Source: an uncultured Bacteroidales bacterium (GTDB lineage: Bacteria; Bacteroidota; Bacteroidia; Bacteroidales; UBA4417). From it: a stretch of DNA of 64,000 nt. The notes beneath the pieces were generated by a model. It saw nothing but the letters and a program-made list of their open reading frames with translations, searched no databases and had not been told where the DNA came from. Position numbers and translations under genes: made by a program. How positions within the stretch are numbered: position 1 is the stretch's first letter; the number at the start of each line of letters is the position of its first letter. This document shows, in pieces, positions 4,018 through 32,572 of the stretch. Where the stretch lies: contig CAVQQF010000009.1 in the NCBI GenBank assembly GCA_963714825.1, positions 81,788 to 145,787 on the forward strand, read 5' to 3'.

Positions 4018-4276
4018 CCCATTCATGAAAATATAGAATCAACATCCTCAAATACTATTGAGTTAATCATTATTTCACATTTCGAGGGAACGAACCACTT
4101 GCTTGAATATGCCAGGCGTATGGCTTAGTTATGCCAGCCGGACAGTTCACCACACTATCAGACTTTAAAATTCAGGTTTTTTAAAGTATTGCTAAAATCG
4201 TCATTTTGCTTTTATTGATGCGGTTTGAACAATACGTAAACATTATTGTTTTCGCATCACATCTAAACTTTGCTAT

Positions 4277-6263
4277 ATGAAAGACAAAATCTACTCATTC
4301 TTCCTAATAGTGCTGTCAGTCACTATTTTTAACACCAACGTCGAGGCACAGATTTGCCCAAACAACCACTTATTTAATGGCGATTTTTCGTCAGGTCTCT
4401 CTTTTTTGGTCGCAGTATGGCAATGTTAACGCCATGGTGCTTCCAATTTCCTCAGGGTGCATTTCAACCAGCCTTGTTATGCCCGCCACTAACAATAGTA
4501 ATTCGGGAGTAATTCAAACTGTAACCATGTACAAGGATACATGTTATGATCTTTGCTACTGTATTGAATCGCCTAATACAGGTGGAAACACCAAGGTTAC
4601 AGTGGCGGCTATAACATCCTCGGTAACACAGGCACAGCTTCTGTCGGGTTCTTTTACAGCGTCACAGGCGCAAATTTTAGATTCCTATGTTATTACTACA
4701 CAGTTCCCGGCTTATCAGCGTTGCCCGGGATCATTTAAAGCAACAGGTAATTTTACAGGATTTGTTATTATTAATGAGACATTTGGAGTGTTGGGTTCTG
4801 ATATCAGGGTTGATAATGTATGCCTTGAGTCGCGTCTCCCTTGCGCTGCCAACCCATGCGACAGCACACAGGCTGCATATTCATATTCAACTGCGCCCGG
4901 TCTGATAACTCAATTCACTGATCTTTCGACCTCAGGTTTAAGTTTTCCGATTTCTTCATGGTCGTGGGATTTCGGTGATCCTTCAACAGGCGCTAATAAC
5001 ACCTCTACATTGCAGAATCCCATCCATGTATTTTCATCTTCGGGATGGTTTTATGTTTGTTTATATATAGCAGCTGGCCAGGCTTCAACTGGTTATTGTT
5101 ACGATACGCTTTGTATGGATATTTATATCGCACCAACCGATCCATGCGATAGTCTTCAGGCTGCTTTTACTTATTCAGCATCAGGAACTACGGTAACGTT
5201 CACTGATCTGTCAAGTTCTGCGACGAGCCTGCCTATACTGGGATGGTCCTGGGATTTTGGCGATCCGCCTTCGGGTGCAAATAATTCATCTTCGTTACAA
5301 AACCCGGTGCATGTATTTTCGAACCCTGGATGGCACCTGGTTTGTCTGTATATTTCAGCGGGTGTGCCAGGCACTGTGCCATGCTACGATACAATATGCA
5401 TGGATGTATATGTACCAACTTCGTCACCCTGCGATAGTGTTGTAGCATATTTCACCTATACTTCAACAGGCCTGAATGGCAATTTTACGGACCAATCTCT
5501 GCTTCCTGCCGGGGCATCCATATCAGGCTGGTCATGGAATTTTGGCGATCCTGCTTCAGGCGCTAATAACACCTCAACTTTGCAAAACCCTGTGCACACC
5601 TTCTCGGCTCCCGGTTTTTATTTCGTTTGCCTGTACATTTCAGTTGTTACCAGCGATGGGCTTAACTGTTATGACACCCTATGCAAGGACGTGTGGATAC
5701 AAGGATCTGCTTCCAATCCATGCGATAGCTTAATGGCTTGGTTTACAGCTTCCGGAAATCTTACTGTTACATTCAACGATTTATCCACTGCAGGAGGAGG
5801 ATTGGTGGTTTCGGGCTGGAATTGGAATTTCGGCGATCCTGCTTCAGGCGCTAATAATGTGAGTACCTTACAGAATCCCATTCATATTTATACGGCTCCC
5901 GGCATATACCTGGTATGTCTTATTGTAGATGCTTATCTGCCCGGAACCACAATTAAATGCTCCGATACTATTTGCAGGGATGTTCTTGCATCGCAGGTAA
6001 TAACAAGCCAGCGAAACTCCAGCGAAAACCACGTTATCATTGCTCCTAATCCCAATACCGGGAATTTTGAAATTCTGGGTAATAGTCTGTTAATTAACCG
6101 AATACAGGTGTTTGACTCAAAGGGTCAAAAAGTTGTGGATCAAACTAGTAATGATAGCAGGGTGTCGCTACCATACTACTGTAAAACCGGTATCTATTAT
6201 TTAATAATCGAAACTTCTAAAGGCATCATCAAAAAGCATATTTCAGTAACAAGAGAATCATAG
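4277..6263 (+). CDS. T9SS-secreted protein with four Cys-rich PKD domains; one +1 frameshift near the 5' end
   Basis: ATG 4277 gives signal peptide MKDKIYSFFLIVLSVTIFNTNVEAQ, which joins ORF 4377..6263 if one T of the T6 run 4402-4407 is removed. Four W.W.FGDP..GANN.S.LQNP.H repeats; C-terminal domain IAPNPNTG...GIYYLII...KKHISV. Confidence 0.85.
5535..5857 (+). repeat. 35-bp direct repeat between PKD domains 3 and 4
   Basis: tggaattttggcgatcctgcttcaggcgctaataa (5535-5569) vs tggaatttcggcgatcctgcttcaggcgctaataa (5823-5857); 1 mismatch. Confidence 0.85.
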
Positions 6264-22556: not shown

Positions 22557-25500
22557 ATGAAACAAACAATCCTTACACTATTCCTGATACTATCCCTGGC
22601 AATTACATCCACAGCCCAGGAATGGATGGCCATCCGATCGCAACAGCCGGTTGCGGCTTCAGCCGAACTGGTTTCGTCCGACATTTCGACCTCGGTGATT
22701 CATTTCAAACTCGATGGATTCTTCCTAAATCCGGTTAAGACTTCGAGGGGAAATGCGTTCACCATCTCCCTTGGGAATTCAACTCCTTTGCTGGATAAAA
22801 ATGCACCCGATCTCACAAAAATGACCGCATCGGTAATTATTCCCGATATGGCTATGATGGAGATAGAAGAAATGTCATCATCATGGGTTGAATATACTGA
22901 TATCGAAATTGCTCCTTCAAAAGGAAATCTCACCCGGGATATTGATCCGGCATCAGTAGCCTACGAGTATGGACGTCCGTATAACGAAAACAAATTTTAT
23001 CCGGCTTCTGTTTCAGGCTTGCGCGACCCTTTTATACTGCGCGATTACCGCGGACAAACCGTGATTGCATATCCATTCAGGTACAACCCGGTAACAAAAG
23101 TGCTAAGGGTTTACACCGATATTACCCTCAAACTAAAAGTTGCCAATAGCAGCGGTTACAATATCCTAAGCCGCAACCAGGTCCCCACTCATGTCGACCC
23201 TGATTTCGGCCAGGCATACAGCCGTGTATTCCTGAATACCACCTCTAACGATTACACTCCCCTGAACGACTATGGCCGTATGCTTATTATAAGCCATACC
23301 AATTACCTGCAGGCCATGCAGCCTTTTGTTGACTGGAAAAACAGCATGGGTATTAAAACCGAAATGGTGGATCTGGCAAGCATAGGAACCACATCGGCAG
23401 CCATTAAAACCTTTGTTCAGAATTACTATACTGCCAATGGCTTAACTTTCCTTCTGCTGGTAGGTGATGGACCCCAGGTTCCGACCAATACTACAGGATC
23501 GCTGGGCGGCCCTTCCGATAATGCTTATGGCTACCTGGTAGGTAACGATCACTACCCTGATATTTTTGTAGGACGCTTTTCGGCCGAAACAGTAGATCAT
23601 GTAAACACAATGGTTCAGCGTACACTCGAATATGAGAAGCAACCTCTCACTACAACAGCATGGTTTGATAAGGGTGTCGGCATTGCCTCGAGCGAAGGCC
23701 CGGGCGATGATAACGAGATGGACTACCAGCATATGCGTAACATCCGCACCGATTTGGTAGGTTACACCTACTCCATGGTTTCCGAATTGTACGATGGCTC
23801 ACAGGGCGGTGAAGACCTTGCCGGGAATCCCACCTCTGCCATGGTTTCGGCTGAAGTAAATGCCGGCAGATCAATCATTAATTATGTAGGACATGGCAGC
23901 GACAATGCGTGGAGTACTACCGGATTTTCGAGTAACAATGTGAATGCACTCAGCAATAACCATATGTGGCCGTTTATATTCAGCGTAGCATGCGTGAATG
24001 GTAATTTCGTGGGTGGTACCTGCTTTGCCGAAGCCTGGCTGCGTGCTAAAAACACAAACGGACCAACAGGAGCTGTTGCTACGCTTATGTCGACGATAAA
24101 CCAGAGCTGGAATCCACCTATGGACGGGCAGGATGAAATGGACGACATTCTTGTTGAATCCTATCCTACCAATATCAAGCGCACATTTGGCGGAATATCC
24201 ATGAACGGATGTTATAAAATGAATGAAACCTACGGATCCGCTGGTGATGAAATGACCGATACCTGGACAATTTTCGGCGACCCTTCGGTGATGATTCGCA
24301 CGGCAATGCCTACGGCCATAACAGCAACACACGAGAGTATGATATTTCTCGGAACTACTACGCTTGCGATAAACTCACCCGTTGAAGGAGCACTGGCTGC
24401 TTTAAGTAACGATAATCAGTTCCTGTCGTCAGGATTTGTTAACAATGGGATTGTAACTTTGAATTTCCCGGCATTTCAAACTCCCGATACGGTTCAACTG
24501 GTGCTTACCGCCTATAACCACATTCCGTATATGGTTAATATAGCGGTTATTCCCAACAACGGGCCCTACCTTTTGTATTACAGCAATACCATAAGCGATA
24601 CCCTGGCAAATAACAACGGGCGGGCTGATTTTGGTGAAACTGTATTTTTAGACGTGGCTTTTACAAATATTGGCGTATTGGATGCTGATAGTGTTGAAGT
24701 TACTGTTTCGAGCACTGATCCTTTTATTACGATTATTGATTCAACCGATATTTACACTTCAATCCCTGCCCAGGATACGGTTGCTATGACTAATAGCTTT
24801 AGTTTTTCACTTGCAGCCGATATTCCAGATATGTATGTGATACCTTTCCATTTCACAGCGGTTTCGGGAAGTAATGTATGGCAGGGGAATTTTACTGTAA
24901 CAGCTCATGCCGGGGTGTTGAAATATTCCGGTTTTACCATCGACGATTCGCAATCGGGCAATGGAAACGGTAAAGCTGACCCGGGTGAAACTTTTATTGT
25001 TTCGGTGAGTATAAAGAATACAGGTTCAGCTCCTGTTTCCAATGTCAGCGGACAGCTATCCTTTAATGATGTGTATGTCACGTTGCTGTCGTCGCCGGCA
25101 CAGAATTATGGCAACCTCACACCCTTTCAATCCACCTCGCGTACTTTTACCATGCAGGCCGATGCCAATACACCCAACGGGCATGTTGTTCCGGTAACAT
25201 TTCTCATGACTGCCGACCTGGGGTTACAGACTTTATCGAATTTCAACCTGGTGGTTGGCCAGATTCCGGTTGCCGTTATCGACCTGGATGGAAACCACAA
25301 CTCAGGGCCTGCCATACAAGCTGCTTTAGCTGCCAACAGTGTATATGCCGAGTATAAAACTTCGATGCCCACGGATCTGAGCGTATATACCACATTGTTT
25401 GTTTCGCTCGGTGTGAGTACCCAGAAACACGTACTTACCACAAACCAGGGCCAGATGCTTGCGGCTTTTCTTGATGCAGGCGGACGTTTGTATATGGAAG

Positions 25501-26387
25501 GCGGCGACACCTGGTACTACGACCCTAAAACAGCTGTTCACCCGAAATTTAAAACAAACGGTGTAATGGATGGCGGCAACGACCTGAACATTGAAAACGG
25601 ACAGGTTGGACAATTCGCCGATGGACTGAGCTTTACCTATACCGGCGATAACGAGTTTATCGACCACGTTTCGGCCACATCACCTGCTTTTAACCTGTTC
25701 AAAAACGCCACTCCTTTGTATATTACTGCTGTTGCTTACGATGCCGGAACCTATCGCACCATTGCTTCCGCTTTCGAGTTTGGCGGGCTTTCAAATGGCA
25801 GTTTCCCTTCGACCCGCAATGAATATATGCGCAGGATCATCGAATTTTTCGAAATTCTTTCGTCGCCATATACCGTTAATTTTATGGGTAATCCTATCAG
25901 TATCTGCGAAGGCGGTTCCGTATCGTTCAGCGATTATTCAACAGCCGGAACCACTTCATGGGAATGGACCTTCCCTGGCGGCGTTCCCGAAAGCAGTACC
26001 GAGCAAAATCCAACGGTTACCTACGATGCAACCGGCCTGTACAACGTTACACTTATTGCTTCTAACGGTATGTTCAGCGATACACTTTCGAAAAACGACT
26101 ATGTATGGGTTGCCTATTGTACCGATATGAATGATAGCCGCAGCAATACGGTTAGCGTTTATCCTAACCCGGCTTCGGATTATGCCTCCGTTTCGTTCGG
26201 AAGCCTTACCGGCACTGTTGAAATTCAGCTGAATGATGCAATGGGTAAATTATTGCTCAGCAAAAGTCAAATCGATTCGAAGCAGCCTTACACGCTTAAC
26301 CTGAAGGGATTAGCAGAGGGCGTTTATTTTGTAACCATAGTTACTGATGAGCAGCGAATTGTTAAAAAGATTGCTGTCAGCCGATAA
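22557..26387 (+). CDS. C25 cysteine peptidase, Arg-gingipain (Rgp)-like, with PKD domain, T9SS cargo
   Basis: YTP...GRMLII, VGNDHYPDIFVGRFS, IASSEG..DDNEMDYQH, NYVGHGS, ACVNG, STINQSWNPPMDGQDEM, IKRTFGG all track RgpB; C-terminal domain VYPNPA...GVYFV...KKIAV. Confidence 0.92.
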   Translation: MKQTILTLFLILSLAITSTAQEWMAIRSQQPVAASAELVSSDISTSVIHFKLDGFFLNPVKTSRGNAFTISLGNSTPLLDKNAPDLTKMTASVIIPDMAMMEIEEMSSSWVEYTDIEIAPSKGNLTRDIDPASVAYEYGRPYNENKFYPASVSGLRDPFILRDYRGQTVIAYPFRYNPVTKVLRVYTDITLKLKVANSSGYNILSRNQVPTHVDPDFGQAYSRVFLNTTSNDYTPLNDYGRMLIISHTNYLQAMQPFVDWKNSMGIKTEMVDLASIGTTSAAIKTFVQNYYTANGLTFLLLVGDGPQVPTNTTGSLGGPSDNAYGYLVGNDHYPDIFVGRFSAETVDHVNTMVQRTLEYEKQPLTTTAWFDKGVGIASSEGPGDDNEMDYQHMRNIRTDLVGYTYSMVSELYDGSQGGEDLAGNPTSAMVSAEVNAGRSIINYVGHGSDNAWSTTGFSSNNVNALSNNHMWPFIFSVACVNGNFVGGTCFAEAWLRAKNTNGPTGAVATLMSTINQSWNPPMDGQDEMDDILVESYPTNIKRTFGGISMNGCYKMNETYGSAGDEMTDTWTIFGDPSVMIRTAMPTAITATHESMIFLGTTTLAINSPVEGALAALSNDNQFLSSGFVNNGIVTLNFPAFQTPDTVQLVLTAYNHIPYMVNIAVIPNNGPYLLYYSNTISDTLANNNGRADFGETVFLDVAFTNIGVLDADSVEVTVSSTDPFITIIDSTDIYTSIPAQDTVAMTNSFSFSLAADIPDMYVIPFHFTAVSGSNVWQGNFTVTAHAGVLKYSGFTIDDSQSGNGNGKADPGETFIVSVSIKNTGSAPVSNVSGQLSFNDVYVTLLSSPAQNYGNLTPFQSTSRTFTMQADANTPNGHVVPVTFLMTADLGLQTLSNFNLVVGQIPVAVIDLDGNHNSGPAIQAALAANSVYAEYKTSMPTDLSVYTTLFVSLGVSTQKHVLTTNQGQMLAAFLDAGGRLYMEGGDTWYYDPKTAVHPKFKTNGVMDGGNDLNIENGQVGQFADGLSFTYTGDNEFIDHVSATSPAFNLFKNATPLYITAVAYDAGTYRTIASAFEFGGLSNGSFPSTRNEYMRRIIEFFEILSSPYTVNFMGNPISICEGGSVSFSDYSTAGTTSWEWTFPGGVPESSTEQNPTVTYDATGLYNVTLIASNGMFSDTLSKNDYVWVAYCTDMNDSRSNTVSVYPNPASDYASVSFGSLTGTVEIQLNDAMGKLLLSKSQIDSKQPYTLNLKGLAEGVYFVTIVTDEQRIVKKIAVSR

Positions 26388-26406: not shown

Positions 26407-26437
26407 AAAGCCATCAGGATTCCTGGTGGCTTTTTTT
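26407..26437 (+). terminator. Intrinsic terminator of the gingipain operon
   Basis: aaagccatcagg-att-cctggtggc followed by T7. Confidence 0.8.
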
Positions 26438-26527
26438 GTGCAGTGCCCCGTAAAGTTTTTTGTTAAAACATTTCCATTGCATATTAAACATTTTTATATT
26501 TGTTTATCCAAACTAAAACCTTGCAAC

Positions 26528-27346
26528 ATGAATAATTTCTTCCTTACTCTGATCGGTTCATTTTACAATCCTGAAACATACCGCGATGCTGTTATCAAAA
26601 TGAAGGGTCGTACTTTCGGATACCTGCTGTTATTGGTTTTACTATGCATGGTTCCACTTATGATTGCCATAGTAAATGGAGGCAACAATTTTATGGCTGA
26701 CGATGGGAAATTTATTGTTGAGCAGGTTCCTGAGATTACATTTAAGAATGGAATTGCATCCATGGATAAGGAATCACCTTATTATATAAAATCGAAACAA
26801 GGCGAAACGCTTTTTGTAATTGACCTTTCGGATTCGGCTGCTATTACGGAGTTACAAGGAAGTGCAAAGGTGCTGCTGACAAAGGATAAATTAATAGCCC
26901 AGCAAAAGGAAAACGAAACCCGTACCTATAAGCTTTCGGATGTGCAGAACTTCACCCTTAATGCCGGAAAAATTATCAACTGGTTCGATTATGCCTGGAT
27001 TGTGTATCTCATCATATTTATTGCAATGCTGATGTTTTTTGCCATCTACCGCCTGGTACAGGCTGCTTTCAACGCTTTGCTCGGCTTAATCATCAGCTCG
27101 TTTATGAAAGTGAACCTCGATTATACCTCCCTATTGTATATTTCAATGATAGCCATTACCCCGGTAGCCATTATAGCCTCGCTTATATGGGCAACAGACT
27201 TTGAAATCCCTTATAAGGGATGGCTGGGTTTTATACTGGCCTTGGGATACATCAGTTTTGGCATTATAGCAAACAAACCGCAGGCTGGGGATTCCACTAT
27301 GCACAATTCCGTGCCCCAACCTCCTGATGACCAGCGCACCTTATAA
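26528..27346 (+). CDS. DUF1189-like membrane protein
   Basis: SFYNPETY...GYLLLL, VPEITFKNG, C-terminal TMs with AITP; TATATTTG promoter box at 26495-26502 supports ATG 26528. Confidence 0.65.
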   Translation: MNNFFLTLIGSFYNPETYRDAVIKMKGRTFGYLLLLVLLCMVPLMIAIVNGGNNFMADDGKFIVEQVPEITFKNGIASMDKESPYYIKSKQGETLFVIDLSDSAAITELQGSAKVLLTKDKLIAQQKENETRTYKLSDVQNFTLNAGKIINWFDYAWIVYLIIFIAMLMFFAIYRLVQAAFNALLGLIISSFMKVNLDYTSLLYISMIAITPVAIIASLIWATDFEIPYKGWLGFILALGYISFGIIANKPQAGDSTMHNSVPQPPDDQRTL

Positions 27347-27450
27347 TAAACGTCTTTACCTGATTCACTATCGAATATTCTAAAATAGGATGGGATATCG
27401 TGCATGCAGGATATAATTGAAAAAATCGTCGACGAAAGAGATTAGTTGGC

Positions 27451-27582
27451 GGTGGATGGTATGGTTAGTTGCCGATTTCGACGCATGTTCCTATCAAGTT
27501 ACAACTACTTCTGATACGAGCGGTGCCTCTCGATTAATCACTGCACCGGCAATTAACTATACCGCGCGTTACCACCAGTGCT
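27451..27582 (-). mobile_element. attC-like recombination site (R'' box and long arms intact; R' end eroded)
   Basis: Minus strand, 14 bp after the AlbA gene stop: AGCACTGGTGGTAAC, then arm GGTATAGTTAATTGCCG (27547-27563) pairing 15/17 with CGGCAACTAACCATACC (27458-27474); inner hairpin 27492-27516. Confidence 0.6.
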
Positions 27583-27596
27583 TCCTTGTTTTTCAG

Positions 27597-29087
27597 CTAT
27601 TTCAATTTTGATTTCATTTTCTTTGTCAAATAATAACCTCCTGTATGAGCTGCTTCTCCTCTGAATTCTATTAGACCACCATCTTTTAATTGTTTTATAT
27701 ATCTTTCCATGCTACTATCTGGTAAACCAGTCGCTTCTTTATAATCAGGAACTCTTTTACCTTCATTTGCGGCAATAGCACTTAATAGAATGGCTAGTTT
27801 ATCTTTAACTCCTTTAGTTACTCCATCAATAGCTCCCTCAACAGCTCCCTCAATAGCTCCCTCATTTGCACCCTCATTTGCACCCTCATTTGCTCCTTTA
27901 GTAGCACCTTCAATTGCTCCACCAAGTTTAACGTCACTAAAGAAAGTAAGTTTAACAGTTCGTTCTCCTATTTCCCATGCGGGTGCTTTAATGCCAGCTT
28001 GTTTACAAGCATCAATAATCTTTAATGTTCCTCTGCCTATCTTTTCGATATAACCTCTTAGAAAAACTATATGTGCTATCTCAGGATTGTATGGCATTGA
28101 TAAATGGTTCTTCTTTAATTCACTTTGTTTGAAAGGAGATTTGCCGCTATTTGTAATTTCTAATTTATCGGGATATATAATAATGGATAATGCACTTGAA
28201 ACCAAACCATATTCTCTATGCACTAAAGCATTCATAACGCCTTCACGCAGAGCAGCCATTGGGAAAACATAATCATCTGTTCGTTTCCAATTATTATTTT
28301 CAAATTTTCGGCTGAATAATAAATGCTTTTCAAAGAAATTTTGAATGGTTTCAATATTCTTAAATAAATTACCTTCTAATAATTGATCATCTTTAAAGAT
28401 ATCGCCAGTTTTTCCGTAGTCGAGAAAAGCGACACGAACTCTTGCTTGTGGAATAAACCGAGACGGTTTCTTAGCAAATAGGATGACAGCTGCATTCGTG
28501 AAATTTCCATTTTGAAAAAGCCCATAATAGGATAGAAACTCAAGAGGCTCTTTTTTAATGTCCTTCATTTTATTGTCAGACAATGCCGCATCCATAGTTT
28601 TTTTGATTTCTTCTATATCCAAATCTTCCAACTCCACACCTAAGGCGGCTTGTCGTTCCCAATGGATTTCGGTTTCCTGTCTTTTATGAATAAGCTCAGA
28701 AATTTCTTTTGAAGAGGCCTGAATGGTTCTGTCAGTTCTGCGGTAATAAATACTGCCGTTAAAAATGTAAGGTTTTTTTGAACCTTCCCAAACCTTTATA
28801 AGCAATAATTGTTTATCGCCATAATTTTCAACCGAAACCATTACAGGTGCTTCGGGCACTAATTCTTTAATCAGGTATTGTTCAATTTCATACTGCCATT
28901 TATATGCATCATTAATTCCTTTAATTTCTTTGTTATCGGCAATTCCAATGAGTATCTGACCGCCTTCGTTATTTAAAAAACCACAAATAGTTTTTCCAAT
29001 AGCATCTTTACGAACAACTTCTTTAAACTCAAGCTGTCCGCTTTCGACCTGTTTTAACAGGTCTTTTATGAGTTGTTCTGTTTTCAT
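27597..29087 (-). CDS. Schlafen/AlbA_2 domain + HATPase_c_4 (RecG C-terminal-like) + wHTH protein
   Basis: ESGQLEFK...ICGFLNNEGG.ILIGIAD (AlbA_2); LREGVMNALVHREY, YPDKLEITNSG, NPEIA...IEKIGRG (HATPase_c_4); terminal HTH. Confidence 0.88.
   Translation of the reverse strand: MKTEQLIKDLLKQVESGQLEFKEVVRKDAIGKTICGFLNNEGGQILIGIADNKEIKGINDAYKWQYEIEQYLIKELVPEAPVMVSVENYGDKQLLLIKVWEGSKKPYIFNGSIYYRRTDRTIQASSKEISELIHKRQETEIHWERQAALGVELEDLDIEEIKKTMDAALSDNKMKDIKKEPLEFLSYYGLFQNGNFTNAAVILFAKKPSRFIPQARVRVAFLDYGKTGDIFKDDQLLEGNLFKNIETIQNFFEKHLLFSRKFENNNWKRTDDYVFPMAALREGVMNALVHREYGLVSSALSIIIYPDKLEITNSGKSPFKQSELKKNHLSMPYNPEIAHIVFLRGYIEKIGRGTLKIIDACKQAGIKAPAWEIGERTVKLTFFSDVKLGGAIEGATKGANEGANEGANEGAIEGAVEGAIDGVTKGVKDKLAILLSAIAANEGKRVPDYKEATGLPDSSMERYIKQLKDGGLIEFRGEAAHTGGYYLTKKMKSKLK
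27810..27920 (-). repeat. Coding 12-bp tandem repeat (9 x GAxE-type tetrapeptide)
   Basis: GAIE GATK GANE GANE GANE GAIE GAVE GAID GVTK. Confidence 0.9.
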
Positions 29088-29668
29088 TGTGCTGGATTAT
29101 TTAAATTGGCTAATTCCCGTTCTACACGCTTAATATCACGGAATAAAGTTTCAACGTGTCTTAACGCTTCATCAGGTCTAAAAAATTCTTGTACCCAATG
29201 ATATTTCCGTTCTTCATAGGCCAAATTTATTTGCACAGCATCGTTATACATATCAATCACCTTAACGCTATCCAGTACTGAAGTTGACTGAATTTCAAAA
29301 TCGTTACGTTGGGTTTTGGCAGCATCGGCATACATATATTGAGCAAGCAATTTTCTTGAGAAAGTGACAAAACTATGAGCAATGAATCTCCGTGGTTTGT
29401 CGATAGCAATAGCTCTTTGAAACTCTAAATGTGTAATTCCAGTGCTGTACATTGGGTTTATGATACCAAAGAAAATATCGCATTCAGCAACTGCGGCTAT
29501 ACAAGCATCAGTGTTGTTCAATCCTAAAGGTGGATGAAGTGTGCCATATTCCGAATTGATAACGTGGTAACCATAGGCATTCAAAATACCGCAAATTTGC
29601 AAAAGCAAATCACGGTTTTGATACACCGTAGAGGCTACCATAACATTTATTTTTCTCTTTTTTGCCAT
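29084..29668 (-). CDS. DUF4062 domain protein (TIR / nucleoside-deoxyribosyltransferase-like fold)
   Basis: VMVAST, CIAAVAECDIFFGII..MY, ITHLEFQRA...KP; stop overlaps the next start (ATGA). Confidence 0.8.
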   Translation of the reverse strand: MAKKRKINVMVASTVYQNRDLLLQICGILNAYGYHVINSEYGTLHPPLGLNNTDACIAAVAECDIFFGIINPMYSTGITHLEFQRAIAIDKPRRFIAHSFVTFSRKLLAQYMYADAAKTQRNDFEIQSTSVLDSVKVIDMYNDAVQINLAYEERKYHWVQEFFRPDEALRHVETLFRDIKRVERELANLNNPAQ

Positions 29669-29764
29669 TCACTAATTTTTCAAAATCAAGTTTATAGATT
29701 TAAATCAAGTTAGCTTTGTATTTCTATTTTTCGTTATTGTCTCGCTGTGTTGTCTGTTTTTTTT

Positions 29765-29800
29765 AGCATTGGTAGCGACTAGAATCTATATACAAATATA
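29765..29800 (-). promoter_or_regulatory. Putative cassette 5' junction plus upstream -7 promoter box
   Basis: AGCATTGGTAGCGAC (29765-29779) matches the reverse complement of 27568-27582 at 11/15 positions; TATATTTG on minus strand at 29793-29800. Confidence 0.5.
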
Positions 29801-29906
29801 CCCACCTTTTCTTCCAACACATCGAAAAACCCGATATTTATTTTCACCAGCAATTTCACTTCTCGAGGATCTGGAATTTCTTTGGAAATAATCACTTACA
29901 AAAAGC

Positions 29907-29961: not shown

Positions 29962-30876
29962 TTATTCTAAAATATGCTGTTCGGCCACCTGCAATATTTC
30001 CTTTGTATCAACATCGTATACAAAAGCTACTACACGGCAGTTTTTAGGGATCAGGGTATTCAGGTTGAAGCCGGCAAACTGGGTTTGAAATGTATTAATA
30101 ACAGGAACTGATGAAGTCTGCTCCTTCGTTAACAAGGAGGTTCCCCAGGTGCCGTTTACTGCGCCACGCATTACATGCATATGCACATAATCCAGTATAT
30201 CGGGTGTTGCTCCTACGAGGGGATCGTTGTTTTTCTGAGCCTTTACAATGCTGTCCTCGGTAATAATAAGCGAGATATTTAGCGAGCGGCCTGAAACAGC
30301 CTGCAGGAACGATGTCTTGGTATGGATGCAAAGTTTATCCTCAGCGGCATTGTACTCAGTAATCAGTTGCAGGTCCATCAAAGGTGCTTCGGAAACCGTA
30401 TTTTTAACAGCATTTGCCCATGCCGGAGGCGACAACACCTGCTGGTTGGCAGGATAACCCTTGCGGCTTACCATCCCGTTGGGATTTCCGATAAGGCCTA
30501 CCTTAAAAAAGTCGTCCCAGGTGGTGCCTTCGGGTGTGCGGAAATCATACGCCCACACCGGGTTCGAAGCGCTTGGCTTGGCGTAGTAACCGGCATGTAC
30601 AGCTATTACCACCAGCGAATCCTGGTACTGTGTCTTTAAGTCGTGTGCAATAAGCCCGGCACGCGGGCAATTAACACAGGTATGTCCGGTATAGTCTTCG
30701 AGCAGGGCTCTTTTAAAATGAGCTGTTACCACCGGAAATTCAGGAACGGGGCATGCTGCTGTATCAACAGGAATATTGGGGATTACATACTGTCCGTCAA
30801 TTTTATCGCAGGAAGAAACTACAAATACCGAAACAGCAGCTATTATCAGGGAAGTAAGAAAATTCAGTTTTGTCAT
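29962..30876 (-). CDS. Omp28-family lipoprotein with thioredoxin-like CxxC
   Basis: Lipobox VSSC followed by DKID; LLEDYTGHTCVNCP; IAVHAG; YVHMHVMR...GTWG; VVAFVYD. Confidence 0.85.
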   Translation of the reverse strand: MTKLNFLTSLIIAAVSVFVVSSCDKIDGQYVIPNIPVDTAACPVPEFPVVTAHFKRALLEDYTGHTCVNCPRAGLIAHDLKTQYQDSLVVIAVHAGYYAKPSASNPVWAYDFRTPEGTTWDDFFKVGLIGNPNGMVSRKGYPANQQVLSPPAWANAVKNTVSEAPLMDLQLITEYNAAEDKLCIHTKTSFLQAVSGRSLNISLIITEDSIVKAQKNNDPLVGATPDILDYVHMHVMRGAVNGTWGTSLLTKEQTSSVPVINTFQTQFAGFNLNTLIPKNCRVVAFVYDVDTKEILQVAEQHILE

Positions 30877-30888
30877 AATTCGTTTGTT

Positions 30889-32572
30889 TTAGAAACTGGT
30901 TGTAACCGTTAATGTAAAACCATTGGAAGCCGGCACATTGCGGCAAACGCCTCCCACGCAGACAATACCTTCGCGCTGTTTGCCATACGAAAGCTGAATG
31001 CGGTTAGCATCGTTATTATAAGCTACAGCTACCAAGGGGTAATGAAACCGTTTGTCGGCATCCTCATTGCCATAATTCCACTGGTCGGCAACGCTCACAA
31101 ACCATTTGGGAGCCACCGTGTATTCGAGTATGCCCATCACCCAGTCGCCTTCGTCTTCTTTGGTAAGCAAGGCCTGTGTTTCGAGGCGGATGGCTTTGTT
31201 TTGAGTGAGTTTATAGGTCATTTCAGCAATAAAAATATCGGCATGAACCATGGGTTCGCCGGTATGGCCTTCTATCACATCGATGTTGTAATCCTCGTAC
31301 ATGTAAGTAAACAGCATCTTGAAACTTTTGCTGAATTTATGGCCTATCTCTATATTAAAATCACGAAAGTATTTGGTGTCGCCCACTTTAAAAAACGATG
31401 ATTTGTACCCAAGTGTGCCTGACTCGCCCAGGGAAGTTGAATCGTTAAGTTGTTCTTTAGCAATTGAATTGATGGCCGAAAAGTTAACGGCAATATCAGT
31501 TCCATATTTACCTCCGAGCAGTGTGTTTTTAGGGATTTTATAATTCAGCTGTGCCTGTAATCCCATTTCACTGCCGGGTTGGGTTGCATATGGGTAAAAT
31601 GCAGCAAGTGTATAGGTTTGCTGTTTTGTGATGGCAGGCAGGTAGTTTATATCCAGCACATTTCCGGTTTCGGTACGCTTCGATTTATATCCCATATTAT
31701 CGAGCCGCTTGGCCTGTACTAGTATTCCGAGTCCTTTCTGGTTATAGGATGCCGAAAGCAACAGCGATTCGCCCTTTTTATAAATGAAATTATTCATGGC
31801 ATTAGGATCATTTATTTTTTGGGCATATTCGCCACCCAGCCCAAAATTACCATAGCTCATATTAAATCGTCCGGCACCGGAAGCAACATTTAAAGGGAGA
31901 ATTAATTCTTCCTGATTGCTGTTGTAAATCACCTCGTTAGCCTGGTATTTGCTTACGAAACTTCCGCCAATCTGCATTCGGAACTTACTGTTTTCGAGTG
32001 GTTTGAAAAGGTCGTTCACATTAATATCGGCATCACCTCCGCGCACAATACCGGGGCCCTGATCCCAGAAATACCGCTGTGTTCCGTAAATTCCTTTTAA
32101 TTCAATTCCATCCACAGGCTTGAATTTCAGGCGGATGCCATTCAGTGAATTATCATATCCCGAGGTTATGCTCCTCATAGGTGCGGAATACGGTTCCACT
32201 TCCAAATTGCTCGTAAATATGGCCTGCCGTTACCTGGAACTGCCCGGTTTTATAATCGACAAACCAATAAGGCACACCTGTTCCCTTATAGCGCGGATCG
32301 TAACCATTTACAGGGTTAAGATACGTTTCGTAACGCAGTCCGGCATTAAAATTACCGGCCGAATAGGTGATATTGGTCCAGGAGTTCATCTGCATTTTTT
32401 CGGGTACAGGTAATGCTCCAATGGCAGAGTCGACACGATAGTATTGTGCGTCCATCTGGAAATTGCCATTTACCTGGCTTCCCAGTGAGTTGTTTTGAGC
32501 CGATACCAGGGAGGGTGAAAGGGAGAAACATGCAAGCAGCAAAGCTGCGAGTGTGAAAATTTGAGTTTTCAA
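30889..32572 (-). CDS. DUF6029-family outer-membrane beta-barrel; one +1 frameshift
   Basis: TTG start with signal peptide; YEQFGSG..FRTYEE..LG|YDNSLNG joins across the C3 run 32159-32161; C-terminus REGIVCVGGVCRNVPASNGFTLTVTTSF ends in Phe. Confidence 0.8.

Follow-up and report, generated by a model that had tools for sequence, protein, structure and literature searches.

Between a DUF1189 gene and an Omp28 gene, an uncultured member of the Bacteroidota carries two coupled genes that end in a long hairpin resembling the recombination site of an integron cassette. The locus lies in a window of 64,000 nucleotides, the whole stretch of DNA analysed here, and no integrase stands beside it. Is it a cassette, and if so, of which system? 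A preliminary description, made from the letters of the window, read it as a stranded integron-type cassette. The comparison with related genomes supports that reading: the hairpin is neither unique nor a plain terminator, its homologues lie in cassette arrays, and the two genes are not syntenic in relatives. Judged by sequence comparison, positions 29779-27448 of the minus strand are probably a single cassette with two genes, belonging to an integron-like system by which Bacteroidota capture genes and which would employ a different kind of recombinase.

The probable two-gene cassette

Re-inspection of the sequence finds the promoter, junction, coupled genes, boxes, arms and loop of the preliminary description all present where it had placed them on the minus strand. 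The parts of the locus are as follows.

29780..29878, minus: attI-like insertion block with promoter-like TATATTTG, ending ...TATAGATTCTA immediately before the junction
29800-29793, minus: promoter-like TATATTTG, inside the attI-like block
29782-29765, minus: junction sequence ctaGTCGCTACCAATGCT, seen in the letters
29765..29779, minus: cassette 5' end, a decayed R' box GTCGCTACCAATGCT with GTC in place of the expected GTT
29669..29764, minus: untranslated cassette leader, similar to a cassette start in G197:C3
29084..29668, minus: ORF A, 194 aa, DUF4062 with an NDT / DNPH1 / TIR-like fold
27597..29087, minus: ORF B, 496 aa, Schlafen/AlbA_2 and HATPase_c_4 with a C-terminal wHTH-like region
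27568..27582, minus: R'' box AGCACTGGTGGTAAC with AAC intact, starting 14 nt past the TAG stop of ORF B
27458..27563, minus: folded core of the attC-like site, 17-nt arms and a 72-nt loop with inner hairpins
27448..27457, minus: spacer and R' core, both decayed: ATCCACC GCC here, GCCAAnC GTT in the family
27347..27447, minus: about 100 nt separating the site from the DUF1189 stop, with no counterpart in empty sites

The two reading frames overlap by 4 nt. At 36.1% GC the cassette lies below its genome, which has 42.3%. The hairpin arms (27563-27547 and 27474-27458) enclose the loop at 27546-27475 and pair at 15 of 17 positions, the other two being A.C mismatches. With atccaccGCC ending at 27448, the whole hairpin spans about 120 nt (27448-27570). 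Its R'' box is identical to the box heading the first element behind the recombinase of G197:C3. The site scores 135.1 bits with a covariance model of the family, R1, in whose training set the window copy itself is included. Its folding energy is unremarkable (z = -1.5 as RNA; -0.8 and -1.3 as DNA for the two strands). The stretch at 27347..27447 also occurs on an X3 contig, which is 99% alike and covers 27411-27661. A scan of the window for tRNA and tmRNA genes found none.

The preliminary description had also drawn on a complementarity of 11 in 15 positions between the 5' junction and the AAC-ending box. Matching the 5' box to the reverse-complemented AAC box of the same cassette reproduces this count, which is weak evidence when taken alone. 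Shuffling the 3.4 kb searched gives 11/15 or better in 63 of 300 trials, and a second 11/15 site lies at 30906. This complementarity, which chance could yield in the region searched, was rejected as stand-alone evidence.

The two genes carried as cargo are a candidate defence pair, composed of an N-glycosidase-like effector (NDT/TIR-like fold) and a Schlafen-type ATPase/wHTH partner. ORF A matches Pfam DUF4062 at 27.9 bits and has no match with PADLOC or NCBIfam. Its AlphaFold model (pLDDT 87.2) finds NDT, MilB, DNPH1 and a TIR domain as best Foldseek matches (E ~1e-4, TM 0.45-0.54). ORF B matches SLFN_AlbA_2 (70.3 bits), HATPase_c_4 (50.1 bits) and, weakly, MarR_2 in Pfam; in PADLOC it aligns with the N-terminal part of a pAgo-fusion profile (74.5 bits). 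Sequence searches of the PDB with both proteins gave nothing useful. Proteins 90-93% identical to ORF A are encoded in three other families of the order, and the two genes travel together, at about 86% nucleotide identity, in the genomes G227, G336 and G405.

The repeat family, its arrays and their recombinase

BLAST finds the hairpin family in 72 of 401 sampled genomes of the order and in 61 of 236 genera, many copies at 85-91% identity; the sampled genomes, being related, are not independent of one another. Copies from other families of the order align with the window element over ~113 nt at 85-91% identity, and the genome of the window (G000) holds at least 15 family members. In five genomes model R1, whose training set came from a single subfamily, finds 7-22 copies each. 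Searches with the element found no match among plasmid records and one partial match among phage records, in an uncultured 462-kb phage. Within subfamilies the sequence, loop included, is also unusually conserved (85-91%).

Across the family the palindrome keeps a Watson-Crick stem, bounded by AAC on one side and GTT on the other; its copies read ..YAAC and GTTR... there, and both triplets occur in 69 of 81 aligned copies. The stem is kept by compensatory changes across these copies, all 16 main-stem pairs showing such changes and being paired in 93-95%. With the 85-91% identity to copies in other families, this marks the element as clearly non-random. Paired stem cells make up 87.9%, compared with 64.1% in shuffles and 28-39% in slid controls, and 480 cells are changed on both sides compared with 150 in shuffles; the alignment was fitted to the model, which favours such pairing counts. 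Over the family the stem pairs are 1398 Watson-Crick, 30 G.T and 30 A.C. Conserved bulges are not seen among the 81 copies, and two near-invariant A.C mismatches are present instead (A in 68 and 78, C in 77 and 79, of about 81 copies), which would be G.T pairs if the bottom strand is read. RNAalifold, applied to the 28 closest copies, reveals no covariation, these copies being too conserved.

Set against this family, the window copy keeps AAC and has GCC for GTT at its 3' end and GTC at the 5' junction. The decay of both GTT triplets, proposed from the window, is thus borne out, GTT being retained in 75-77 of the 81 copies. The accompanying claim of deviant cores is correct for the window copy and fails for the family: its AAC and GTT triplets are canonical, so only the window copy is aberrant.

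Copies of the repeat form same-strand arrays, for example five copies in a 7.9-kb contig and ten at G000:C12:318-19104. Of the ORFs between consecutive sites, 95 of 104 lie on the strand of the sites, and the median spacing is 1.6 kb. The seven nucleotides after GTT pair with the seven before AAC of the next site at a mean of 4.75 of 7 positions over 36 adjacent pairs (24 pairs score at least 5, 11 of all pairs are perfect, and 12 score 3 or less). Scored in the same way, the two boxes of a single site give 2.57 and random pairs 2.47, and none of 20,000 permutations reaches 4.75. Because the bases after each GTT, which are part of the following cassette, match the AAC box of that very cassette, cassettes appear to have been cut and joined at or beside GTT, as in integrons. 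This end-pairing rule is the diagnostic footprint of integron cassettes. Some of the low-scoring adjacent pairs may hide undetected sites.

The arrays are accompanied by a recombinase, as anticipated for homologues of the hairpin. In G283, in G015 and at two loci of G197 the best IntI/Xer-like match is a co-oriented gene directly upstream of the array; in G253 this match lies at a contig end. Among 80 loci encoding relatives of the array recombinase, 10 have same-strand R1 matches downstream, and all 10 records are titled Bacteroidota. Cultured strains such as Algoriphagus ornithinivorans DSM 15282 and Flavobacterium aciduliphilum DSM 25663 are among the carriers. The enzyme is an Xer-like tyrosine recombinase with a long N-terminal extension and without the IntI-specific extra domain. 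It scores 213 bits with TIGR02249, for which the cut-off is 265, and matches only positions 2-179 and 238-315 of that profile; positions 180-237 are unmatched, with about 17 codons in between. A query with the array-type recombinase returned no tyrosine recombinase from the window or the rest of its contig. The G000 assembly (86.8% complete) yielded no array-type recombinase; its best-matching sequences are a 301-aa XerC/D-like gene and a frameshifted one on contig C4.

attI-like sites and the locus in relatives

In relatives, attI-like sites lie 23-125 nt after the stop of the array recombinase; since the site lies past this stop, the recombinase gene is co-oriented with the cassettes. The block ahead of the window cassette resembles these sites, including 'GTGGTATATATTTGTTGCTATAGACTA|GTT' of G015:C25, and is itself without an adjoining recombinase. 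Elsewhere in G000, further small cassette loci begin with blocks like it. The block contains a TAnnTTTG motif, which we take to be the Bacteroidota -7 box. The promoter had been regarded as resident, a view that has to be given up: it is part of a portable attI-like block with homologues behind recombinases in relatives and elsewhere in G000.

An empty DUF1189-Omp28 junction, the arrangement to be looked for in relatives, is seen in G005 and G021, which also lack the attI-like block. In G009 the same junction carries a different cassette. Window positions 29948-29778 are common to both genomes there (71% over 175 nt), and the common block runs up to TTCTAGT. From the cassette 5' end (29779) onward the two diverge, and G009 continues with GTTAGCGGTCATGCT, a 340-aa ORF and an element whose box ends ACCGCTAAC. 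That element scores 30.6 bits with R1 and is found only with filters off, default filters missing it.

The cassette start has homologues behind other sites. Window positions 29796-29723 match, at 79% identity over 76 nt, the beginning of the cassette that comes first after the recombinase of G197:C3, a beginning that reads GTTACCACCAATGCT; the corresponding start in X1 and X5 contigs is TTTACC|ACCAATGCT. X1 and X5 contigs that are ~95% alike to the window carry ORF A up to 29773 and then the 3' end of an attC-like site. On an X1 contig, window positions 29790-29871 are joined to a different cassette start. The gene pair lies behind attC-like sites in other organisms; in G405 an element of 62.9 bits immediately precedes it. 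No R1 match adjoins the pair in G227 or G336, and in G336 a different direct repeat, ~120 nt long, stands on either side, which suggests that the pair also moves by other routes. A search of sequencing-run contigs for recombination joints, in partial DNA matches only, found none, and no RNA sequencing runs matching the locus are listed.

The proposed mechanism would have an Xer-like tyrosine recombinase at the head of co-oriented arrays in which each cassette ends in an imperfect palindrome of ~125 nt. The site would act as folded single-stranded DNA, probably as the bottom strand, and the recombinase would also work in trans on dispersed attI-like sites. The window cassette would occupy one of these, a promoter-bearing block at which a close relative has another cassette, and the promoter of the block would drive cassette transcription. 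With both flanking GTT triplets lost and no array-type recombinase in the assembly, the window copy would no longer be mobile; it is probably a fossil, frozen in place.

The whole block, attI-like module, genes and hairpin together, could instead have arrived by homologous recombination or another island-transfer route, so that the junction at 29779 would not be site-specific. Relative to G005 and G021 the insert does include ~100 nt on either side of the cassette proper, the gene pair does occur without R1 sites in G227 and G336, and the assembly has yielded no recombinase. This account is unlikely given that G009 has the same block up to TTCTAGT and then a different cassette obeying the end-pairing rule, and that in X1 and X5 contigs the likeness to the window breaks off no more than 6 nt away from where the crossover is predicted.

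Two further explanations concern the hairpin itself. It might by now serve the operon only as a structured RNA 3' end that terminates or stabilises the transcript, its likeness to a recombination site being historical or coincidental. Its start 14 nt past the ORF B stop suits such a role, the conservation of the loop (85-91%) hints at a further function, and the loss of GTT means that any present role of the window copy would be other than recombination. Yet the hairpin is not followed by a T-run, its arms of 17 nt and loop of 72 nt are unlike the short GC-rich hairpin of an intrinsic terminator, and no Rfam family matches (the region at E up to 10 and eight loci at E up to 1 gave only chance-level matches). 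Stem pairs are nearly all Watson-Crick, with A.C as frequent as G.T, and the two A.C mismatches of the sense strand would be poorly tolerated in RNA. The AAC and GTT ends and the pairing between neighbouring sites are left unexplained, and we consider this account improbable. A miniature transposable element, MITE-like or derived from IS ends, that landed downstream of genes would likewise be multi-copy, often at contig ends and imperfectly palindromic. It is the least credible explanation: neither a target duplication nor a terminal inverted-repeat pair is seen, the repeat is co-oriented with the genes upstream of it, the complementary flanks of neighbouring copies are not a product of transposition, and the copies are tied to one clade of tyrosine recombinases and not to a transposase. 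The MITE reading and the plain-terminator reading were both rejected.

Beyond the integron-like cassette at this locus, a broader proposal is offered tentatively, at somewhat less than even confidence. The Bacteroidota may harbor a widespread, hidden integron analogue in which an Xer-like recombinase lacking the IntI domain acts on folded hairpins, both at its own array and in trans at scattered, promoter-bearing, one-slot expression sockets that receive incoming cassettes. The window would then hold a socket locked by GTT mutations, and the rAID-1 clusters discussed below would be one gut-specific branch.

Comparison with known systems

The sedentary chromosomal integron of Vibrio cholerae is composed of IntI, attI and attC cassettes, with VCR repeats of ~125 nt. 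The system described here shares with such integrons co-oriented, promoterless cassettes that each end in an imperfect palindrome with AAC and GTT cores, a crossover footprint at GTT, a structure-conserved stem, repeats that are homogeneous within a family, a promoter-bearing attI-like site beside the recombinase, and defence- and toxin-antitoxin-like cargo. It differs in its recombinase, which lacks the IntI-specific domain, has a long N-terminal extension and is co-oriented with the cassettes, whereas the integron integrase is divergent. The bulged bases of attC have their counterpart in two conserved mismatches, and many small arrays or single cassettes are scattered over the chromosome behind attI-like blocks of their own. 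Like a CALIN, the window has a cassette and site without an integrase nearby; a CALIN is defined by at least two canonical attC sites found with an attC model, whereas the window has just one, and that from a divergent family. Xer-dependent dif modules, known from Acinetobacter plasmids, are also gene modules moved by Xer-type recombinases. Their sites are 28-bp duplexes in alternating orientation, unlike the 125-nt palindromes in direct orientation, with stem covariation, seen here.

In the integron literature the IntI-specific domain is held necessary for cassette recombination and Bacteroidetes are held to essentially lack integrons. The present data amount to a complete comparative footprint of cassette recombination in an order of Bacteroidota, tied to a recombinase without the IntI domain, and show cassettes inserted, amid housekeeping genes, at promoter blocks that have no recombinase. 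If confirmed at the bench, this would widen the definition of integron-type gene capture and open a new route to mobile defence genes in a phylum from which standard integron searches return next to nothing. The window would contain a clean example of a cassette turning into a fixed chromosomal gene.

The closest published counterpart is the rAID-1 cluster (recombinase-associated acquired interbacterial defence) of Bacteroidales (Ross et al., bioRxiv 10.1101/471110). A literature search for attC-like sites in Bacteroidota returned only the rAID-1 papers, whose motif may stand in supplements or figures outside that search. The accessible parts of these papers already note integron-like repeats beside an XerD-like recombinase in Bacteroidales (bioRxiv 10.1101/471110; PMC12247911). 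As given there, rAID-1 clusters have a 5' recombinase at least 44% identical to BF9343_RS08045, at least two co-oriented downstream genes with GC of 41% or less, and orphan immunity genes (bioRxiv 10.1101/471110). They share with the present system a tyrosine recombinase of XerD-like type at the 5' end, co-oriented genes, low in GC at least in the window cassette, and intergenic repeats reminiscent of integrons, and the host order is probably the same. The definition in those parts rests on recombinase and immunity-gene content, and they describe no folded attC-like site, end-pairing rule, attI-like sites or solo cassettes. The window cargo, DUF4062 with Schlafen/HATPase_c_4, is also not an immunity gene, and this cassette of 36.1% GC has no adjoining recombinase. 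Compared by published description, the system is probably related to rAID-1 clusters, and those of gut Bacteroidales would, if the present reading is confirmed, gain a mechanism.

The cassette in the window and its cargo

Between the DUF1189 and Omp28 genes lies one cassette of an integron-like system. The system is real, is widespread in Bacteroidota, and has been only partly described in print. A preliminary description had interpreted it as an integron-type cassette; this interpretation is supported, with corrections, and the motif, junction, genes, box, and arms that it listed were all found on the minus strand where it had placed them. ORF A and ORF B overlap and are AT-rich. The DUF1189 and Omp28 genes flank the block and are convergent upon it.

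Features of the block and its flanks (window coordinates)
29800-29793, minus: promoter-like motif TATATTTG
29782-29765, minus: junction ctaGTCGCTACCAATGCT
29668-29084, minus: ORF A, 194 aa, DUF4062
29087-27597, minus: ORF B, 496 aa, Schlafen/AlbA_2 and HATPase_c_4
14 nt past the ORF B stop, minus: box AGCACTGGTGGTAAC
27563-27547 and 27474-27458, minus: 17-nt arms enclosing a 72-nt loop, followed by atccaccGCC
26426-27346, plus: DUF1189 gene
30876-29962, minus: Omp28 gene

The cassette has a GC content of 36.1%, compared with 42.3% for the genome. The predicted structure of ORF A (pLDDT 87.2) matches nucleoside 2'-deoxyribosyltransferase, MilB, DNPH1, and a TIR domain (E ~1e-4; TM 0.45-0.54), and ORF B has a PADLOC match to a pAgo-fusion profile, in the Schlafen-type N-terminal part of that profile. 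The gene pair is thus a candidate for a role in defence. Neighbouring genes provide an ordinary Bacteroidota surface-protein context. They include Omp28 and DUF6029 (29962-32205) and, at 22557-26387, a C25 (gingipain-type) peptidase of 1276 aa that has PKD and type-IX secretion sorting domains.

The attC-like site as a folded repeat family

The attC-like site (27448-27570, minus strand) is one member of a large family, and not the unique hairpin that would have spoken against a cassette. With a 161-nt query, BLAST located it in 72 of the 401 genomes sampled from the same order, representing 61 of 236 genera. Identity reaches 85-91% across ~113 nt for many copies, and many are situated at the ends of contigs. 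In an alignment of 30 copies with flanks, the conserved part begins just past a variable ...AAC and ends at ...CGTT, and the flanks are mutually unrelated. A covariance model (R1), built from 28 copies of one subfamily, recovers multiple copies per genome (15, 7, 22, 12, and 17 in five genomes, including that of the window) and also reveals same-strand arrays. Five sites share one strand of a 7.9-kb contig in the relative G253, ten form a same-strand array at the start of contig C12 of the window's genome (G000), and many further loci have two to four. The median spacing of consecutive sites is 1.6 kb, and 95/104 intervening ORFs of ≥70 aa are on the sites' strand, by greedy and rough ORF calls. 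In the record of an uncultured 462-kb phage (LR756500.1:402427-402483), 57 nt align at 81% identity with the element's 3' half.

The folding energy of the window hairpin is ordinary, and its region gave no Rfam match and no hit in a tRNA scan. Across 81 aligned copies, 87.9% of cells are paired, versus 64.1% when shuffled and 28-39% with partners slid, and compensatory changes are seen at 16/16 main-stem pairs; this alignment was fitted to R1, which favours both counts. The stem pairs comprise 1398 Watson-Crick, 30 G.T, and 30 A.C. This almost pure Watson-Crick pairing is a better fit to DNA than to RNA. Two A.C mismatches are near-invariant, with adjacent positions covarying, and both become G.T pairs if the complementary strand is read. 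By analogy with attC, the active strand is inferred to be the bottom one.

Crossover footprint and array recombinases

AAC and GTT are both present in 69/81 aligned copies. The 7 nt past one site's GTT complement the 7 nt before the next downstream site's AAC at a mean of 4.75/7 over 36 pairs, with 24/36 scoring ≥5 and 11/36 perfect. Controls gave 2.57 inside a single site and 2.47 for sites paired at random, and the observed mean was reached in 0/20,000 permutations. As read from sequence, this is the pattern of integron cassettes, because the bases after G/TT move with the following cassette. Twelve of the 36 pairs score ≤3; several of these span >5 kb and may hide undetected sites.

As predicted, arrays lie near a tyrosine recombinase. 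The best integron-integrase-model match is directly upstream of the array and co-oriented in the relatives G283, G197 (two loci), and G015, and is at a contig end in G253. These recombinases (Phage_integrase and SAM_4) reach 597 aa, and the longest three have N-terminal extensions of ~200-300 residues before SAM_4. They just pass the XerA/integron-integrase model (221.6 bits, cut-off 220), fall below the integron-integrase model (213 bits, cut-off 265), and leave model positions 180-237, the IntI-specific region, unmatched. Same-strand R1 matches lie downstream in 10 of 80 loci encoding relatives of the array recombinase, a lower bound because R1 was trained on one subfamily. All ten carry Bacteroidota titles, among them Bacteroidales, Flavobacterium, Polaribacter, Algibacter, Algoriphagus, Gilvibacter, Chitinophagales, and others. 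In G283, ~14 tyrosine recombinase loci of ~310 aa (open frames 310 or 316 aa) are packed into 200 kb of contig C1 (110000-303000).

An array-type recombinase was not found in G000, an assembly that is 86.8% complete and whose contig C12 begins inside an array. The closest candidates there are a XerC/D-like gene of 301 aa and a gene on C4 that is frameshifted. The latter (C4:335374-336172) is split across two neighbouring frames of 155 and 162 aa, aligns at 40% identity with the C-terminal half of the array recombinase, and has no R1 sites within 6-7 kb on either side.

Related loci and known systems

Relatives were checked for an empty DUF1189-Omp28 junction, and G005 and G021 have one, with only a shared terminator. 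The closer relative G009 shares with the window this terminator and a block up to ...TATATTTGTATATATGTTCTAGT. Past this block, G009 has GTTAGCGGTCATGCT, an ORF of 340 aa that is unrelated, and an R1 element that scores 30.6 bits with filters off and whose box ends ACCGCTAAC and pairs with the start of the G009 cassette. Broken IS66-like transposase frames lie downstream of that cassette, and the stretch from the Omp28 stop to the attI-like block holds ~30 tandem copies of a ACGTTGAAAT-like 10-nt unit (L048, G009:C13, 870-1160).

The common block is similar to attI-like sites that follow array recombinases at a distance of 23-125 nt and consist of a short palindrome and then TATAnnnnn/GTT; the site in G015:C25 is nearly the same in sequence. 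At least four other small cassette loci of G000 are headed by similar blocks (...TTGnTATA...TA/GTT; C3:494798, C3:~610450, C4:~225680, and C4:~245300); each of these four leads one to three cassettes and has no recombinase next to it. In a contig from metagenome set X1, the attI-like block (29790-29871) runs into the start of a different cassette.

In the window, both GTT triplets are lost, as the preliminary description had proposed. The 5' box is GTCGCT, compared with GTTACC or TTTACC in homologues; it departs from GTTACC at three positions, each by a transition. The 3' core is GCC, where 75-77/81 copies have GTT, and the spacer before it also departs from the family. The window copy is probably a fossil, a cassette fixed in place.

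Its leader and both boxes are homologous to those of the first cassette behind the G197:C3 recombinase (L069), which starts GTTACCACCAATGCT and has four unrelated ORFs as cargo (91, 443, 302, and 519 aa). Cassette "frames" may persist longer than the genes they hold. Contigs from sets X1 and X5 are ~95% alike through ORF A up to 29773 and continue (minus strand) with ...TATATCGTAACC TTTACC, which is an attC-like site's 3' end. Three other families of the order have ORF A proteins of 90-93% identity, and 24 genomes from the same genus as the window yielded no ORF A in a DNA search. The gene pair has ~86% nucleotide identity in G227, G336, and G405. In G405 it lies directly behind an R1 element (62.9 bits); no R1 site was detected at the pair in G227 or G336. 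In G336, a ~120-nt direct repeat unrelated to the attC-like element flanks the pair (L186, G336:C115, ~1850-2030 and 4130-4300) and may mark a cassette boundary of another type.

A conserved non-coding unit of ~270-420 nt precedes 9/29 BLAST-best copies from other genomes (L023:1250-1500; the same region in L027, L018, L033, L031, L035, L036, L038, and L045; L057:10280-10701). It behaves as an ORF-less cassette, because it starts GTTGGCAAC and ends ...GTTGCCAAC. Since it contains a terminator-like hairpin and a promoter-like motif TAAATTTG, it may supply a promoter or small RNA.

In literature searches that covered text passages of the rAID-1 papers, no account came up of the folded site, of the pairing rule, or of solo cassettes in Bacteroidota. 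As excerpted, the IntegronFinder 2.0 paper lists Bacteroidetes with only In0, plus one complete integron in Salinibacter. By published description, and not by sequence, the system is likened to the Bacteroidales clusters termed rAID-1 (acquired interbacterial defence associated with a recombinase). In the available portions of those accounts, an XerD-like recombinase accompanies co-oriented low-GC genes, and the intergenic repeats are called "reminiscent of integrons" (Ross et al., bioRxiv 10.1101/471110; 2025 preprint, PMC12247911).
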